Assembly (NCBI GenBank): GCA_017464845.1
Contig: JAFTYD010000011.1
Span: 1 to 61,473 of the forward strand
Length of the DNA stretch: 61,473 nucleotides
Direction of reading: 5' to 3'
Origin: Clostridia bacterium
GTDB lineage: Bacteria > Bacillota > Clostridia > Christensenellales > UBA1242
The notes beneath the pieces are model-generated. The model was not told the DNA's origin. It saw only the letters and a list, made by a program, of their open reading frames with translations, and searched no databases. The position numbers and the translations under genes are program-made. Positions 22,132-61,314 of this stretch are shown here, one piece after another; the stretch's first letter is position 1, and each line of letters begins with the position of its first letter.

Positions 22132-22171
22132 ATTAAAAATTATCAATTTTTAGTACTTTTATAAAATTTTA

Positions 22172-22624
22172 TTAAAAATTCAACTTCATAGGTACAAATT
22201 TTATACCATCAATTTCTTGCATTTCTGACTCGTCTTTAAACCCTATTTTATGATAAAAATCAATCGCATAAGGTGAAGAATTTAATGTTAAAAAGTTTAC
22301 TTGACTAATACTTTTAACCTTTTCAACTAAATTTTTTGCTATACCGTTTCTATGATATTCTTTATCAACAAACAACAAATTTATATGTTGTCTATCTTTA
22401 ACACAAATCATTCCAACAATTTTATTTTCTACCTTTGCAACATAGATTTCAAAATTTTCTTTTAAGCATTTTGAAATATTATCGAAATTGGCAAACTTAT
22501 AAAACGAATTAACCCCTTCTTCAGAATAATCCGGCTTTTCAAATTCATCAAATACACAAGTTACAAGTTTTAAAGTTTCACTTAATTCTTCAATTTTTAA
22601 TTTCTCAATTTTATAGTTCATCAC
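22172..22624 (-). CDS. GNAT family N-acetyltransferase
   Basis: LLFVDKEYHRNGIA and NSSPYAIDFYHKIGF motifs. Confidence 0.9.
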   Translation of the reverse strand: MMNYKIEKLKIEELSETLKLVTCVFDEFEKPDYSEEGVNSFYKFANFDNISKCLKENFEIYVAKVENKIVGMICVKDRQHINLLFVDKEYHRNGIAKNLVEKVKSISQVNFLTLNSSPYAIDFYHKIGFKDESEMQEIDGIKFVPMKLNF

Positions 22625-23611: not shown

Positions 23612-23710
23612 GTTACCCCTCTCATATATTTTATATTATAACATATCATATTTTTTCTTGTATAAGATTTTATTAAATTTTTAAATAATTAATAAAATTT
23701 TATAAAATAA

Positions 23711-47445: not shown

Positions 47446-47852
47446 TGGTGGAGACGGAGGGATTTGAACCCTCGTCCGAAACAACTAAGCATAAGCCTTT
47501 CTACATGTTTAGTTTGTGTTTATTTTTCATTTTTAATTAGTCCACAAACAAACTTTAAAAACAATTCTTTTAAAATTTTTCCAAAGTCCAAAAGACAAAC
47601 AACTTTGAAAGTTTCGCTACATATGATACTCAATTATTAAATAAGCGACATTTAACATGAGCAGGTCGAAATCATATCGACCAAATTTGTTTCACTAACT
47701 AGGCAGCAATAGCAACAGGTGCTTTGTAACCAGCGAATGAAACTACATTATTATCGTCTGCGTTTATTTTCGCTACCCCGTTTTAAGTGTTCTTGGCACC
47801 ACTACATGCTTTATACTTTGCCGAACTATCCCGTCGAAACCTGTTCGCCCCC
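47446..47852 (-). ncRNA. ssrA: tmRNA
   Basis: 5' GGGGGCGAACAGGTTTCGACGG and 3' GGGTTCAAATCCCTCCGTCTCCACCA with G3-U acceptor pair; tag ORF at 47761-47699 reads ADDNNVVSFAGYKAPVAIAA*; directly after smpB. Confidence 0.97.
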
Positions 47853-55717: not shown

Positions 55718-55746
55718 TTGACAATCTAATTTTTATACCATATAAT
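55718..55746 (+). promoter_or_regulatory. Sigma-A promoter of the RNase III-viperin-Smr operon
   Basis: Perfect TTGACA (55718)-17 nt-TATAAT (55741); predicted transcription start about 55752. Confidence 0.85.
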
Positions 55747-55750
55747 AACA

Positions 55751-55899
55751 TTGCAGAATTAAAAGGTATTACTTTTTTGTGAATACGGAATAAGTATTGC
55801 TATGTTGAATACAAGATGTTGATATTCAACCCGATTTTTCAAAAAACTATCGGTAACGACATTATTAAATAATCTCGAAACCTCCTGATAATTCTGTAA
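55751..55899 (+). ncRNA. Structured 5' leader / candidate ncRNA (family not identified)
   Basis: Closing helix ttgcagaatta/taattctgtaa (11 bp, one G-U); inner hairpins ttttgt/acggaa, gttgaata/tattcaac, ccgat/atcgg and attat/ataat; begins at the predicted transcription start. Confidence 0.65.
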
Positions 55900-55905
55900 A
55901 GCTAC

Positions 55906-55927
55906 GGGAATTTATACCGTTTTATTT
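55906..55927 (+). repeat. Left arm of the inverted repeat bracketing the RNase III-domain gene
   Basis: gggaatttataccgttttattt; core 55912-55927 is the exact reverse complement of 58238-58253. Confidence 0.85.
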
Positions 55928-55961
55928 AACTAAACAGAATATGCAAAAGGAGGACTATTTT

Positions 55962-58238
55962 ATGTCTATACACAGACATGGGGATGGTCTATTTTGGCCA
56001 TCCCTATTTTCTATTTCAAATGAAATAGAAAAAAAACAATTATTAAATTTAATTGAAGAAAAAACAATTGTTAATTACACATCTCTTCAACTTGCCCAAG
56101 AAATGCTTGAAATATCAAATATGCCTTTAGATTACAGAATTGATGATCCTTGTGTACAATTAGCTTGTGAACATGTTGCTCTCAAATTTATGCTTCAAGA
56201 TTCAGAACTTGCAAAAGATTTACTAAATGAAGATGACTTTTATAAAGCAAATGAATTAATTTCAAGAAAACAATATAATAGCAAGCTATTACAAAAACTT
56301 TTACATAGTTTTTTAAAACTTTTAATATCTAAACAAAATGACAACTTAAAAAATTTGTTTACAATCTCTATTATTAATGAGTATAGTAAAGTACAAGAAG
56401 ATGAAATCAATCATTCTTATGGAGTTTTAAAAAAAATAATTGAAAAAAAAACATCAGGTGTTAAAAATAACTGTTATTATAAGGCTGAACATTCTTTACA
56501 AGCAACTCCATTAAATGACATACTTAATCAATTTATTTTAAATAAGATAAATTATAATTTTAACCAATCAAATGAATGTAAAGTAAATAACGAAACAAGT
56601 ACTCTTTTTTGTGGTTATGAACAAAAAGTAAATAATAAAATTTTACAAACAGCACTTATTAATGATGATAAATTTTGGGCAGAACATAAAAACTTTAATA
56701 TCGTAACTTTTCTTAATGAAATTGTAAATCTGAACGATATTCGTCATGCAGAAAAAGTTTTAGAATTAATTATAGAAAATTTACAAAAAATCCCACATAT
56801 AAACCTTATTTTTAAACACAACTTTCCACTTTATATGTCAAAGTATGATGAACTTGTAGAAAAACTCGAAGAACAAACATTTAGATTTTGTTTCAAACGA
56901 TTAGAGCCTTATTGTGATTTATCTATATTAAAAACAATTCATTTTTGTTATCCAATGAACAAAGTAGAACCTAATTTTTTTGAGATCGGGCAAAAAGTTT
57001 GGAATAACTTCATTTGTAAATACAATTATCCTAACAACTTTGATGATGTTAACAATTTTCTTAATAATGAAATTAATCGCTTCATATCTGGAGATACTCA
57101 TGAATATAATGATATCGCAGTTATTCTTGATGCAGCCCCATTTAGATATTCAGCCGATAATGATGATAGAAGATTATTTACAGCTTATCACCCTGATTGT
57201 TTCTCTTTTGATAATATTTGGAAACGTGTGTATCTAAAAGCTTATGCTGTTACTCTTCTTTCAAAAGACGAACAAACGCAATTTTCTTATTTACAAAGAA
57301 TTTTTGTAGATTTGATTAAAACAATTGAAAAAAGAATTGGAATTTGTACTACTCATCAACTTGATATTTCAACTCGTACAAAACATTATGAAGAACTTAA
57401 AAAAACACTTAACTTATTTGATATCAATGTAAATGATGAACATAAAAATGATTATATCATCTCTTTACTTGATAGAGATTCTGCACTCATAGAAGAAGCT
57501 GATGTTTTCCCAATCCTTGAACAGATAGGTGACGCTATATATGGATTCGCTGTTGCAGAACTTTTATTCTACGATCCTAACACTAGAAATATGTCAGAAA
57601 AGTTTGAAAATCTTACTCGTGCTGAAGCTCAAGTATTAATATCTAAAAAACATAGATTTGATAAACTTTATTTACAAATAGGCATCCCTGCTAAATACAC
57701 TGAATATGATTCTATCTTTTTTGATTACGAAAACATTAATGAAGAAAATCTTCAAATTCTTAATCAAGAAAAGTATCTTGCAGATTCACTTGAAATGATA
57801 ATAGGTTCTATTTACCGCGATGTAGGTATTGAACAATCTATCAATTTCACAAAACAACTACTTCTTACAACATTCCCAGAACAACTACATAAAGAAGTTT
57901 TCCCAACAGAAGAAAATAAATTTAACAGAGATATCGATATGGACTATTGGTCAAAAATACTCCCTTCTCCTTACTCTGTTATGAATAGTGAACTCATAAC
58001 TCTTTGGAATGCTCTTAATAAAGTCATTCTAATTACTTCGCTTGGTACTGAGACAAAAGAAAAGCGAAAATACATTACTAATAGCTTTGGCAATACTGCT
58101 ATTTATGGAGAAGAAAGCCTCAATCATATTGTAACATGGGCTTTCCATAATTATCTGAATAACGGACTTTATTCCGTTTTACAGAAATATAGCGAAAAAA
58201 TTCGCAATAATTACGAAAACAATAAAAATTTTAATTAA
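55962..58238 (+). CDS. Large protein with an RNase III catalytic domain in its C-terminal third and an uncharacterised N-terminal region
   Basis: AAGGAGG RBS before the ATG at 55962; LEQIGDAI and LADSLEMIIGSIYRD match the RNase III signatures LEFLGDAV and ADAFEALIGAIYLD; no dsRBD evident. Confidence 0.8.
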   Translation: MSIHRHGDGLFWPSLFSISNEIEKKQLLNLIEEKTIVNYTSLQLAQEMLEISNMPLDYRIDDPCVQLACEHVALKFMLQDSELAKDLLNEDDFYKANELISRKQYNSKLLQKLLHSFLKLLISKQNDNLKNLFTISIINEYSKVQEDEINHSYGVLKKIIEKKTSGVKNNCYYKAEHSLQATPLNDILNQFILNKINYNFNQSNECKVNNETSTLFCGYEQKVNNKILQTALINDDKFWAEHKNFNIVTFLNEIVNLNDIRHAEKVLELIIENLQKIPHINLIFKHNFPLYMSKYDELVEKLEEQTFRFCFKRLEPYCDLSILKTIHFCYPMNKVEPNFFEIGQKVWNNFICKYNYPNNFDDVNNFLNNEINRFISGDTHEYNDIAVILDAAPFRYSADNDDRRLFTAYHPDCFSFDNIWKRVYLKAYAVTLLSKDEQTQFSYLQRIFVDLIKTIEKRIGICTTHQLDISTRTKHYEELKKTLNLFDINVNDEHKNDYIISLLDRDSALIEEADVFPILEQIGDAIYGFAVAELLFYDPNTRNMSEKFENLTRAEAQVLISKKHRFDKLYLQIGIPAKYTEYDSIFFDYENINEENLQILNQEKYLADSLEMIIGSIYRDVGIEQSINFTKQLLLTTFPEQLHKEVFPTEENKFNRDIDMDYWSKILPSPYSVMNSELITLWNALNKVILITSLGTETKEKRKYITNSFGNTAIYGEESLNHIVTWAFHNYLNNGLYSVLQKYSEKIRNNYENNKNFN

Positions 58239-58259
58239 AATAAAACGGTATAATTTCTC
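58238..58259 (-). repeat. Right arm of the inverted repeat bracketing the RNase III-domain gene
   Basis: aaataaaacggtataatttctc, complementary to 55906-55927 (one U-U mismatch, one G-U). Confidence 0.85.
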
Positions 58260-58283
58260 CTAATTTTTTATAAAAAGGAGAAA
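58254..58283 (+). promoter_or_regulatory. Anti-Shine-Dalgarno hairpin over the viperin RBS
   Basis: tttctcct (58254-58261) is complementary to aggagaaa (58276-58283), the RBS of the ATG at 58289. Confidence 0.6.
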
Positions 58284-58288
58284 ATATT

Positions 58289-59134
58289 ATGAAAAAATTT
58301 AATGTGATAAACTATCACATAACAAACAAATGTAATTATCATTGTACATACTGCTTTGGCAAATTTAAAGGTCAAGACCCATCTATTGATGAAGCAAAAA
58401 AAATTATAAACAACATTGCATCATATTTTAGAAAAAACAAAATTAATGACGGAAGAATCAATTTTGCAGGTGGTGAGCCAACTTTATATAAACATCTTGA
58501 TGAATTAATAGATTATTCAAATTCACTTGGAATTACTACATCAATTATTACAAATGGTTATTTACTCACTCCTGAACGTATTCGCTCTTGGAAAGGTAAA
58601 ATCTCAATAATTGGAATAAGTGTCGATTCACTTTCATCTGATTCAAATAATAAAATTGGTAGATGCTATCTCAATAACTCAATATCTCTTACACAACTAA
58701 AAGAATTATCTAACTCTATACACGAATGCAACATTGATTTAAAGATAAATACCGTTGTTTCAAAACTTAATATTAACGAAAATTTTTCTGAATTATATCG
58801 TGCTTTAAAGCCAAAAAAAATTAAGTTATTTCAAATGCATTTAATTGATGGAATAAATAATAAATCAAAAAAATATGAAATAACTAAAAAAGAATTCGAT
58901 GAATTCTGTAAAAAACATCAAGAATTTGAATCTATTATTATTGCTGAACCTTGTGGAAGTATGGAAAATTCTTATTTAATGATTAATCCAGAAGGTGAAT
59001 TTCAGTTAAATAACAATGGAAATTATAAAACTTTTGGAAATTTAAATACAAATTCTCTTTATGAAATACTAAAAAATGTTCCACTAGATTCTAATAAGTT
59101 CAACCTTCGCTACTTAAAAGAAGGTTCAAGATGA
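58289..59134 (+). CDS. Prokaryotic viperin (antiviral radical SAM ddhNTP synthase)
   Basis: Viperin-diagnostic NYHITNKCNYHCTYCF, INFAGGEP, SIITNG, ISVDS, N.KIGR, KINTVV, KLFQ, M.NSYLMI and C-terminal D..KF..RY. Confidence 0.9.
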   Translation: MKKFNVINYHITNKCNYHCTYCFGKFKGQDPSIDEAKKIINNIASYFRKNKINDGRINFAGGEPTLYKHLDELIDYSNSLGITTSIITNGYLLTPERIRSWKGKISIIGISVDSLSSDSNNKIGRCYLNNSISLTQLKELSNSIHECNIDLKINTVVSKLNINENFSELYRALKPKKIKLFQMHLIDGINNKSKKYEITKKEFDEFCKKHQEFESIIIAEPCGSMENSYLMINPEGEFQLNNNGNYKTFGNLNTNSLYEILKNVPLDSNKFNLRYLKEGSR

Positions 59135-59469
59135 GTAAATATATAGAACTTAATATTAAAGATGGAATGCCTCCTGCTTGTGAAGCAATGGATTGTTTAA
59201 AAAATTTATTTGAAAGATGTCGCGTTAATAAATACAAATGTATACTTATCATTCATGGTTATGGCAGCACAGGTAAAGGTGGAAAAATCCGTAAGTTAAC
59301 TCGTACATGGTTAGAAAAACAAAAACAAAAAAGAAAAATCAAAACTATTATAATTGGAGAAGATTTTAATATTTATAATCCAAAAGCATTAGAATTAAAA
59401 AATAAATACCATGAACTCTCTCCACTACTATCTGTTTGCAATCATGGTGTAACGGTAATAGAAATCTAA
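59131..59469 (+). CDS. Stand-alone Smr (MutS2 C-terminal) domain nuclease
   Basis: LNIKDGMP, IIHGYGSTG.GG.IR and N.GVT motifs; ATGA overlap with the viperin stop. Confidence 0.85.
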   Translation: MSKYIELNIKDGMPPACEAMDCLKNLFERCRVNKYKCILIIHGYGSTGKGGKIRKLTRTWLEKQKQKRKIKTIIIGEDFNIYNPKALELKNKYHELSPLLSVCNHGVTVIEI

Positions 59470-59515
59470 TCTAAAATACAAATAAAAATGTCATTAGATG
59501 ATTAATTTTAAAAAT

Positions 59516-59547
59516 AAAAACCTATTAGAGAAAACTAATAGGTTTTT
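59516..59547. terminator. Bidirectional intrinsic terminator
   Basis: aaaacctattag-agaaaa-ctaataggtttt hairpin between Smr and the convergent gene. Confidence 0.8.
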
Positions 59548-59593
59548 ATTTTTATAATATAATTTCATATGAAACTTAAATATATACAATCTC

Positions 59594-60592
59594 CTACCAA
59601 TAACTAATGTCTAAATAAATTATTTTATTTTCAAAATCTACTCTTTTTATAAGATAACCATAATCTCTAAAAAGATTTGTATAAAAAAACATCTGATAAT
59701 CAAGTTTTTCACCTAAAATATTTTCTACTTCTTTAAAAGAAATTGTTTCATCTACATCATATTTATCTTTATTTCTTAAATAATCAGCAAATTTTTTATA
59801 TTTTTCTCTAATCGAAGGTAAATTTTGATAACTTATATCTGTCAATAAAATAAAATTTCTAACAATATCTTCAAGATCATCACAATTGCCATTAATCAAA
59901 TAAATAGCATACAATACAGCTTTAACAGCATCAGCAAGTATTGTATTGTTTGTAAATTCATAATTTTTTGGCTTAAAATTTTCATCACACAAAATATAAT
60001 CAATCAAATTGTATTTTTTAGCGATTATTTCAGTCAACTGCTTATCAGTTAAAAATTCAGGAAGAAAATAATCTAAATTAATCATTGAAGAATTATAAAA
60101 TTGAAATAAATAGTTTACTTTTAACAAATCGATTAATTTTTGACCAGCTGTAACCATATCAAAATTATATTCATACTCACGCAAGCAATTTTTTGAACAA
60201 GCATATGACCCATCTGTTAATGCTCTTTTTATAAACTTATTATCGCATTGTAAATATTTTAAGAATAAATCTTCAAAAATTTCCTCATGTGTCTCCTCAT
60301 TGTATTCATAAAAAGCAATATCTTTACATTTTTTCAAACTTATCCAACCACAAGTCCCTATTTTTGTACTACCTTCAAACCATATCATTCTGCATTTTTC
60401 AGGATTAATAAACATATCAACTTTTTCATATTCAGGACTTTTTGAAATCGCTAGCAAATTTTTATATTCTTCCAAAAACTGATGAGAATTTTCAACATCA
60501 TAGCATTTGTCTATATTTAATTTTTCTGAACGAATCAATATTTTATCAGGAAAACTACCATTTAATAGAAATAATTTTTTAATATTATTCAT
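59594..60592 (-). CDS. Degenerate (catalytically inactive) RNase III-like protein with a small C-terminal domain
   Basis: RALTDGSY, NFDMVTAGQKL and ILADAVKAVLYAIYL align with ALTHRSY, NERLEFLGDAV and ILADAFEALIGAIYL; C-terminal KY..F..YL...ISFKEVENILG...VDF. Confidence 0.65.
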   Translation of the reverse strand: MNNIKKLFLLNGSFPDKILIRSEKLNIDKCYDVENSHQFLEEYKNLLAISKSPEYEKVDMFINPEKCRMIWFEGSTKIGTCGWISLKKCKDIAFYEYNEETHEEIFEDLFLKYLQCDNKFIKRALTDGSYACSKNCLREYEYNFDMVTAGQKLIDLLKVNYLFQFYNSSMINLDYFLPEFLTDKQLTEIIAKKYNLIDYILCDENFKPKNYEFTNNTILADAVKAVLYAIYLINGNCDDLEDIVRNFILLTDISYQNLPSIREKYKKFADYLRNKDKYDVDETISFKEVENILGEKLDYQMFFYTNLFRDYGYLIKRVDFENKIIYLDISYW

Positions 60593-61238: not shown

Positions 61239-61314
61239 TGGAGCTGATGACGGGACTTGAACCCGTGACCTCCGCCTTACCAAGGCGGTGCGCTACCGAC
61301 TGTGCCACATCAGC
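61239..61314 (-). tRNA. tRNA-Thr(GGT)
   Basis: GCTGATG...CATCAGC-T-CCA acceptor stem, anticodon arm CCGCC-TTGGTAA-GGCGG and TTCAA T-loop; 76 nt. Confidence 0.98.

Follow-up and report, generated by a model that had tools for sequence, protein, structure and literature searches.

Conserved long-range mRNA pairing predicted around the gene of an RNase III-domain protein in a candidate viperin defence operon

Long-range pairing in bacterial mRNAs is known from few individually studied cases. The processing stalks of ribosomal RNA (rRNA) are formed by distant complementary stretches on one transcript, which bracket a functional unit and provide about two turns of double-stranded RNA; the rnc gene of Escherichia coli is autoregulated via cleavage of a hairpin in its own leader; in the RNA phage MS2, the replicase start stays masked by a long-distance interaction until translation of the coat gene; and in Bacillus subtilis hbs, interactions of the 5′ untranslated region (UTR) with the 3′ UTR control decay. 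Riboswitches and other leader expression platforms, ribosome-sensitive attenuators such as pyrBI and, at the DNA level, invertons, in which short inverted repeats flank invertible DNA, are further classes for comparison. The element analysed here is an inverted repeat in a Clostridia bacterium (GenBank assembly GCA_017464845.1, contig JAFTYD010000011.1, positions 1 to 61,473; this whole stretch of 61,473 nucleotides is called the window below). It brackets the gene of an RNase III-domain protein, named RN3L here, which is followed by genes for a prokaryotic viperin (pVip) and an Smr-domain protein. The pairing of its two arms is defined by comparative evidence alone.

The locus resembles E. 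coli rnc in having an RNase III-family gene with double-stranded RNA in its own message; in E. coli this is a local leader hairpin, whereas here the helix brackets the gene and RN3L is not the housekeeping enzyme. As in the rRNA stalks and the long-range duplexes of B. subtilis, complementary arms bracket a unit. Unlike the rRNA stalks, nine of the 24 helices described below are only 14-17 bp long. The RNase III duplexes analysed in B. subtilis lay within 1 kb, as far as the accessible part of the report goes (PMC11780869), whereas the helix here spans 2.3 kb and a translated open reading frame (ORF). In icaR of Staphylococcus aureus, the nearest case described so far, pairing of the 5′-UTR with the 3′-UTR controls translation initiation and makes an RNase III duplex, according to the available portion of the original study (PMC3868564). 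The complementarity found here between the 5′ UTR and the sequence behind the stop codon is a similar, conserved arrangement. However, the 3′ element of icaR is, in the same portion of that study, an anti-Shine-Dalgarno (anti-SD) motif (UCCCCUG) which covers the SD sequence of its own gene and represses (PMC3868564). Here, the 5′ arm lies in a hairpin loop, 21 nt before the SD sequence of RN3L (SD1) in the window and at least 13 nt before the ATG elsewhere, and the arm pairing does not cover SD1. Since the intercistronic 3′ arm overlaps the anti-SD of the next gene, the pairing should unmask rather than mask. A further difference from icaR is that here an entire gene family retains the feature, with covarying sequences.

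The arms in the window and in related loci

The following features of the window define the element:

55906..55927, + strand: 5′ arm of the proposed long-range helix, in the apical loop of the SD1-masking hairpin H1 (complementarity, conservation, covariation)
58238..58259, + strand: 3′ arm of the proposed long-range helix, beginning at the last base of the stop codon (complementarity, conservation, covariation)
55962..58238, + strand: gene for RN3L, a 758-aa RNase III-domain protein (PF00636), in which about 465 N-terminal aa are all-helical and a tandem RNase III-like pair makes up the C-terminal part

The core of the repeat is a perfect inverted repeat of 16 bp (55912-55927 and 58238-58253). 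The 22 positions of 55906-55927 and 58238-58259 make 20 Watson-Crick pairs besides one G-U and one U-U, and the repeat can be extended to 37 nt with 78% complementarity (55898-55934 and 58231-58267); as an alignment, it occupies 28 columns, 25 of them Watson-Crick pairs. SD1 (AGGAGG) begins 21 nt behind the end of the 5′ arm, and the first base of the 3′ arm is the last base of the TAA stop codon (58236-58238). An earlier sequence-only reading of the window had described arms with these coordinates and letters, the 16-bp perfect core, one U-U and one G-U over 22 bp, a possible extension to about 28 bp, and a location just before the ribosome-binding region and at the stop codon; all of this was borne out. 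It had described the bracketed gene as that of RNase III; the protein has an RNase III domain but is not the housekeeping enzyme, and a canonical rnc lies elsewhere in the genome.

Judged across the whole window, the repeat alone does not exceed chance: simulation of 60 windows per Markov order gave 0.92 (order 1) and 0.80 (order 3) perfect inverted repeats of at least 16 bp within 3 kb per window, and two are present in the real one. The second (22157-22175 and 23689-23707) consists of A and T only. When only the flanks of the gene were considered, the 16-nt run was longer than in any of 40 shuffles (mean 8.8 and maximum 11). At 0 mismatches, the 1.26-Mb genome contains no further copy of the exact 16-mer; at 2 mismatches it occurs at five places, fewer than the reversed-pattern control. 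A chance repeat in A+T-rich DNA (the G+C content of the window is 27%) would agree with the 0.8-0.9 expected per window and with the second, A/T-only repeat at 22157/23689, but it is refuted by the 24 of 26 loci in which the arms keep their place and covary, and we give it practically no credence. It is this conservation in homologous loci, not the repeat as such, for which the repeat is held to be real.

Related loci were collected by profile-guided scans, 25 in genomes and 9 in metagenomes. According to the sequence records they derive from several bacterial classes; they are mutually related and come mostly from metagenome bins. Two duplicates with identical results (L034 of L010, and L041 of L024) were dropped, and seven loci with one flank missing in each (L015, L022, L033, L037, L038, L039 and L042) did not enter the arm tests, for which the complete set was thus 25 loci plus the window, 26 in all. 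The arms were compared via pairwise alignments and a whole-gene alignment; a display of the arms in fixed columns is out of register for the lineages with a one-base bulge. These alignments were partly guided by the complementarity under test, and controls with non-cognate arms and slid registers address this guidance.

The sequence-only reading had asked for conservation and covariation of the repeat in homologous loci, and a complementary, covarying pair was found at the same two places in 24 of the 26 loci (arm-versus-arm alignment score at least 22), when the stretch between anti-SD1 and SD1 was aligned with the reverse complement of the region behind the stop codon. The 5′ arm lies 13-71 nt upstream of the ATG; relative to the stop codon, the 3′ arm falls between -8 and +49, and its first base between -8 and +16 in every arm-bearing locus. 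About ten distinct arm types were distinguished; the arm sequences by lineage were GGATCATACCGTTCC, AGGATCATACCGATTCGA, AAGGATTATATTTTCCA, AAATTTATGAATTATT, TATGTCATTTAAGCAG and ATATCATTCCACACA, and each matches its own partner. Cognate arm pairs had a mean score of 32.2 versus 15.3 for non-cognate pairs, and the cognate 3′ arm ranked first in 15 of the 24 loci and among the top five in all 24. In the whole-gene alignment (19 loci, 15 arm pairs), 86% of cells were standard pairs and double-sided changes were found in 10 of the 15 arm pairs. None of 500 shuffles reached this, while registers slid by 1-3 columns paired at 33-48%; the significance figures are overstated, because related loci are not independent.

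The helix would measure 20-35 bp, mismatches and bulges included, in 15 of the 24 loci (23-28 bp in the window) and 14-17 bp in the other nine. Arms were missing in L018 and L029; in both, the next gene begins at most 4 nt from the stop codon and the intercistronic hairpin H2, described below, is absent. We conclude from the comparison that the arms are very probably the strands of a long-range RNA helix which forms within one mRNA and is under selection.

In L019, L020, L021, L024, L025, L027 and L040, the 3′ arm carries a conserved extra base and a mismatch at the same place in the helix (GGAGTT-TTATC versus GGAGTTCATATC); such a fixed bulge is unnecessary for a plain inverted DNA repeat.

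RNA pairing or DNA element

The repeat could also act in DNA, as the ends of an invertible segment or of an inserted cassette or as recombination sites, an alternative already raised by the sequence-only reading. Like an inverton, the locus has a short, near-perfect inverted repeat around a DNA segment, in this case one whole gene. The operon lies between a transfer-messenger RNA (tmRNA) gene and a tRNA gene, and its distribution is sporadic, RN3L being found in 0 of 60 relatives and in 0 of 398 other genomes of the class (2 further genomes were unscored). Several observations speak against a DNA element. The RN3L gene was inverted relative to the leader and pVip in none of the 26 loci, gene order and orientation (leader, gene, pVip) being identical in all. 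Contigs of two sequencing runs were colinear across the arms (run X3 over 55721-58700, run X2 over 56505-58700), and no strand-changing joint at the arms was seen in the contigs examined, which cannot exclude rare variants. No recombinase was found in the conserved surroundings, which comprise RN3L, pVip and Smr only (the flanks were compared with window proteins only, and no recombinase profile was run). Because arm sequences differ between lineages of several bacterial classes, a DNA element would need lineage-specific recombinases; and the arms lie within SD-masking RNA hairpins.

The kinds of mismatch point in the same direction. On the sense strand, the non-Watson-Crick positions of the gapped arm alignments comprised 13 G-U and 4 A-C, and those of the ungapped arm cores 5 G-U and 1 A-C; the numbers are small, and this excess of G-U over A-C is only suggestive of pairing at the RNA level. 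Considering the covarying arms, the G-U excess and the lack of an inverted copy together, we regard the arms as parts of an RNA helix rather than a DNA site. In contrast to the invertons, neither a second orientation nor a conserved recombinase was seen, and an invertible or recombining DNA element is unlikely, so much so that we consider it a remote prospect.

The sequencing runs also revealed differences within the operon. In a low-depth contig of run X3, 107 bases of 55866-55974, covering the 5′ arm and the SD1 region, are exchanged for 93 other letters, and a 6-base insertion is present behind 56504 in the X3 and X5 contigs. These differences look like variation of the operon between strains present in the same samples.

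Possible roles of the helix

The arms are embedded in further predicted RNA structures at both ends of the RN3L gene:

55718..55746, + strand: sigma-70-type promoter, TTGACA-17-TATAAT (12 of 12 consensus matches)
55749..55899, + strand: structured leader domain of about 150 nt (RNAalifold and covariance model)
55881..55886, + strand: anti-SD1 CCTCCT, pairing with SD1 in the local hairpin H1
55891..55896, + strand: switch strand ATTCTG, with the 5′-terminal CAGAA (P1) or the downstream CAGAAT (H1 upper stem) as alternative partners
55935..55940, + strand: CAGAAT, 3′ strand of the H1 upper stem, conserved in the leader alignment
55948..55953, + strand: SD1 AGGAGG, 8 nt before the ATG at 55962
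55978..56017, + strand: intrinsic-terminator-like hairpin and T-run in codons 6-16 of RN3L (terminator scan), a candidate attenuator
58254..58283, + strand: hairpin H2, in which anti-SD2 TTTCTCCT (58254-58261) masks the viperin SD2 AGGAGAAA (58276-58283)

Transcription is predicted to start at about 55753, and equally spaced -10-like boxes precede the conserved leader in other loci. In the leader model, stem P1 pairs the first bases of the transcript, GCAGAAT (55753-55759), with ATTCTG (55891-55896); P2 is a hairpin at 55804-55830, and P3 a hairpin at 55852-55882 which includes the first two C of the anti-SD. RNAalifold predicted 21 pairs in the leader, 10 of them with compensatory double changes; P1 covaries at 3 of 5 pairs, and both P1 and the alternative pairing of ATTCTG predicted from the alignment are supported by covariation. 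SD1 was fully paired to anti-SD1 in the minimum free energy (MFE) fold of 20 of 24 loci. A pairing of the 5′ arm with the conserved leader sequence ATCGGTAA was also considered and dropped, as the complementarity is missing in the L019 group.

A covariance model of the leader, R1, had one match per locus in the 33 sources searched, always preceding RN3L, and recovered loci outside its training set (L039, 127.6 bits; L017, 77.7; L022, 41.4; L029, 37.8; L026, 28.6). It had one match in its own genome and none above chance in 150 relatives. The leader was thus met before RN3L only, without the breadth of a riboswitch that precedes several gene families, and no Rfam family was found for the leader, the arms or the intergenic region, either at the gathering threshold or at E up to 10.

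The hairpin in codons 6-16 was present in 25 of 25 aligned loci, with 7 consensus pairs, 5 of them with compensatory double changes, and a T-run behind it. It is G+C-rich with many G-U pairs, and the encoded peptide varies with the hairpin. It looks like an intrinsic terminator which a ribosome could melt, and so is a candidate for a ribosome-sensitive attenuator. The terminator scan found no such site between the 3′ end of RN3L and pVip. Just before the terminator-like hairpin, a small hairpin, ATGTCT ... AGACAT (55962-55979), contains the start codon itself, both in the window and in several of its close relatives.

At the other end of the gene, six of the eight bases of anti-SD2 in the window belong to the 3′ arm. 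Of 24 loci, 23 have a predicted SD2 hairpin, and in 21 of these 23 the 5′ strand of that hairpin shares 4-24 nt with the 3′ arm. In L028 the 3′ arm abuts the SD2 hairpin, and in L017 the distal arm overlaps it.

From this arrangement we tentatively propose, with somewhat less than even confidence, that the main role of the helix is that of a long-range switch unmasking both ribosome sites in full-length transcripts. In one state, H1 and H2 would be closed and SD1 and SD2 both masked; in the other, the arms would be paired, with SD2 open and SD1 probably open. The arm helix and H2 are mutually exclusive because they share bases, and an arm helix of 15-35 bp is hardly compatible with closed H1 stems; two alternating transcript states would follow. 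As the 3′ arm would be present only in transcripts passing the early terminator, the helix would mark full-length messages. The decision of the leader between P1 and H1 could thereby be relayed to a cistron 2.3 kb downstream, coupling translation of the antiviral genes to the state of the leader. Ribosomes ending RN3L translation would have to unwind the 3′ arm, so RN3L translation would feed into the balance. Formation of the helix in vivo, the direction of the unmasking and a signal sensed by the leader are what we infer from these features.

Folding calculations are consistent with such a switch. Pairing of the leader end with the intergenic region lowered the energy in all 26 loci, by 1.9-31.6 kcal/mol. 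When the whole 2.5-kb transcript was folded, the MFE structure contained the arm helix in 14 of 24 loci, among them the window (with 19 of 27 arm bases), which would fit two states of similar energy; MFE folds are unreliable for RNAs of 2.5 kb. L018 and L029, in which H2 is missing and the next gene is coupled by overlap, are also without arms, which connects the arms with regulation at the downstream ribosome site.

Other points weigh against the switch. The global MFE fold lacks the arm helix in 10 of the 24 loci, and the topological conflict with H1 is an argument from reasoning. L018 and L029 keep H1 without arms, so the 3′ arm is not required to open SD1. The early terminator-like hairpin could end most transcripts before the 3′ arm is made. 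The G-U excess amounts to 17 events in related loci, some of them in A/U-rich extensions, and a duplex of 20-35 bp, as in 15 of the 24 loci, would be an RNase III substrate regardless of any other role.

As in MS2, a long-range pairing that responds to ribosomes on the upstream cistron would control where ribosomes enter a downstream one; masking is the work of the long-range pairing in MS2, whereas here it would be that of a local hairpin, with the long-range pairing as its competitor. Like riboswitch and attenuator leaders, the locus has a structured 5′ domain, a P1 strand common to the SD-masking stem and a terminator just downstream. Unlike them, it serves one gene family only, has its terminator inside the ORF, and would reach with its loop a second cistron 2.3 kb away.

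The helix may instead be mainly an RNase III processing site, as the sequence-only reading had suggested, cut either by RN3L, as autoregulation with self-excision of the cistron, or by the host RNase III, as maturation; this is a serious possibility, which we nevertheless place below the switch. A cut would, if this possibility holds, sever the leader from the RN3L cistron and the RN3L cistron from the pVip-Smr message. The helix lengths of 20-35 bp in 15 of 24 loci and 23-28 bp in the window would suit such cleavage; the host carries a canonical rnc (TIGR02191, 173 versus 166 bits), and the four catalytic acidic residues of RN3L are invariant. Confinement of the leader to the RN3L family is also as expected if the operon's own protein regulates. 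B. subtilis RNase III cuts long-range intramolecular mRNA duplexes, according to the accessible part of that report (PMC11780869), and the 5′-3′ UTR pairing of S. aureus icaR yields an RNase III substrate, in the available portion of its report (PMC3868564); by analogy, RNase III cleavage of the helix is plausible. However, helices of 14-17 bp, as in nine of 24 loci, are short for canonical RNase III, and RN3L, with catalytic residues in the first of its tandem domains only, may cut no more than one strand. Processing also leaves unexplained both the overlap of the 3′ arm with anti-SD2 in 21 of 23 loci and the loss of the arms exactly where the intercistronic hairpin is missing. The switch and processing can both be true.

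An end-to-end pairing without any on/off switch, which brings the stop codon beside the gene's own start for stability or ribosome recycling, appears improbable. It would either protect the message from exonucleases or pass terminating ribosomes to SD1 or SD2. Terminating ribosomes must meet the 3′ arm, since its first base is found at -8 to +16 of the stop codon in all arm-bearing loci. But the 3′ arm is internal to the operon transcript rather than 3′-terminal, the 5′ arm is preceded by a structured domain that sets it about 150 nt away from the 5′ end, and the anti-SD2 overlap indicates control of SD2 over protection.

A bolder version of processing, which we consider doubtful, is that the operon is a self-processing module of RNA and RNase, in which RN3L cuts the bracketing helix of its own full-length transcript. 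The cut would free the pVip-Smr message and also the 150-nt leader, which would serve as a stable partner RNA, be it an antitoxin-like inhibitor or a guide, and the early terminator would determine how much leader RNA is made relative to nuclease mRNA. Such a module would resemble type III toxin-antitoxin systems. If true, a new antiviral nuclease system under RNA control would mature at the gene-bracketing stem.

The RN3L operon and its setting

The start codon of RN3L is most likely the ATG at 55962, 8 nt after AGGAGG, and not the ATG at 55941. Pfam PF00636 matched residues 526-627 of the protein with 30 bits (cutoff 27). E520, D524, D608 and E611 are invariant across 33 RN3L homologues, and no comparable set of acidic residues was found in these homologues within residues 644-758. 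Against the rnc equivalog model, RN3L scored 23 bits, far below the cutoff of 166, and for this reason it is not regarded as the housekeeping RNase III; a canonical rnc (TIGR02191, 173 bits, cutoff 166) is located on another contig of the same genome.

The AlphaFold model of RN3L is all-helical with a mean predicted local distance difference test score (pLDDT) of 85; residues 1-15 are below 50 and disordered. The match to bacterial RNase III nuclease domains is confined to residues 471-643 (Z 15-16, root-mean-square deviation 2.1-2.6, about 139 residues), and the tandem domains of Drosha and Dicer align to residues 466-758 (Z 16-17, 236-259 residues), with weak Foldseek E-values of 0.014 and above for the latter matches. 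Because of the Drosha/Dicer alignment and the catalytic residues in the first domain only, we infer from the model that an active RNase III domain and a degenerate one are paired intramolecularly in the C-terminal part, and RN3L is perhaps a single-strand nickase. For the N-terminal 465 residues, no recognised relative was found in Pfam and no usable match in the ESM Atlas (1-465).

Sequence searches of the PDB with RN3L returned weak RNase III domain matches only, and in PADLOC and NCBIfam the only family match of RN3L was a weak one to RNase III. RN3L has 109 homologous clusters at 34-99% identity. No relative was found in viral contigs, in plasmids and phages (tblastn), or in genome contigs searched with the single RN3L protein.

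Downstream of RN3L, the following features were identified:

58289..59134, + strand: prokaryotic viperin (pVip), a radical SAM enzyme (NCBIfam NF038283, 277 bits, cutoff 180; PADLOC pVip, E 4.4e-80)
59131..59469, + strand: Smr-domain protein of 112 aa (PF01713, 35.2 bits, cutoff 25.7), its start overlapping the pVip stop
59477..59586, no strand assigned: inverted repeat between the operon and a convergent gene (52-nt arms, 73% complementary, 6 nt apart), likely a two-way terminator

In most loci the gene after RN3L is pVip. Smr stands behind pVip in 14 loci and immediately behind RN3L in L023 and L028, and in L029 the next gene is a different one. None of the other neighbours in the window recur in the compared loci. 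The conserved three-gene operon of RNase III-like protein, pVip and Smr is a candidate defence operon, of which PADLOC sees pVip only.

The ORF that converges on the operon (59594-60592, - strand) encodes a 332-aa RNase III-like protein (PF14622, 36.5 bits, cutoff 35). As a paralogue of RN3L it was ruled out by comparison, and it is also unconserved in the other loci. A tmRNA gene (47446-47852, - strand) and a tRNA-Thr gene (61239-61314, - strand) flank a 13-kb stretch, which may be an island at the tmRNA gene; beside the operon, it contains genes for PIN, NUDIX, metallo-beta-lactamase-fold and short pyrophosphatase proteins.

Long-range intramolecular mRNA pairing as such is already known; the regulatory architecture around it here is undescribed. 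Nothing in print was found on the operon of RNase III-like protein, pVip and Smr or on its leader, although supplementary tables, which were outside the search, might list it. The genes of pVips have been described beside HicA and RelE RNases, and the question of how such RNases are controlled has been asked, as far as the accessible part of that report goes (10.1101/2023.12.08.570793). The architecture found here offers one concrete candidate answer to how pVip-linked RNases are restrained. The helix would link three unreported elements, namely a leader absent from Rfam, a terminator in the first codons and a masked pVip ribosome site, and as it covaries over about two dozen loci, it is directly testable by compensatory mutations. 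If the proposed switch is true, a single 5′ sensor would govern a cistron 2.3 kb away without a protein factor.

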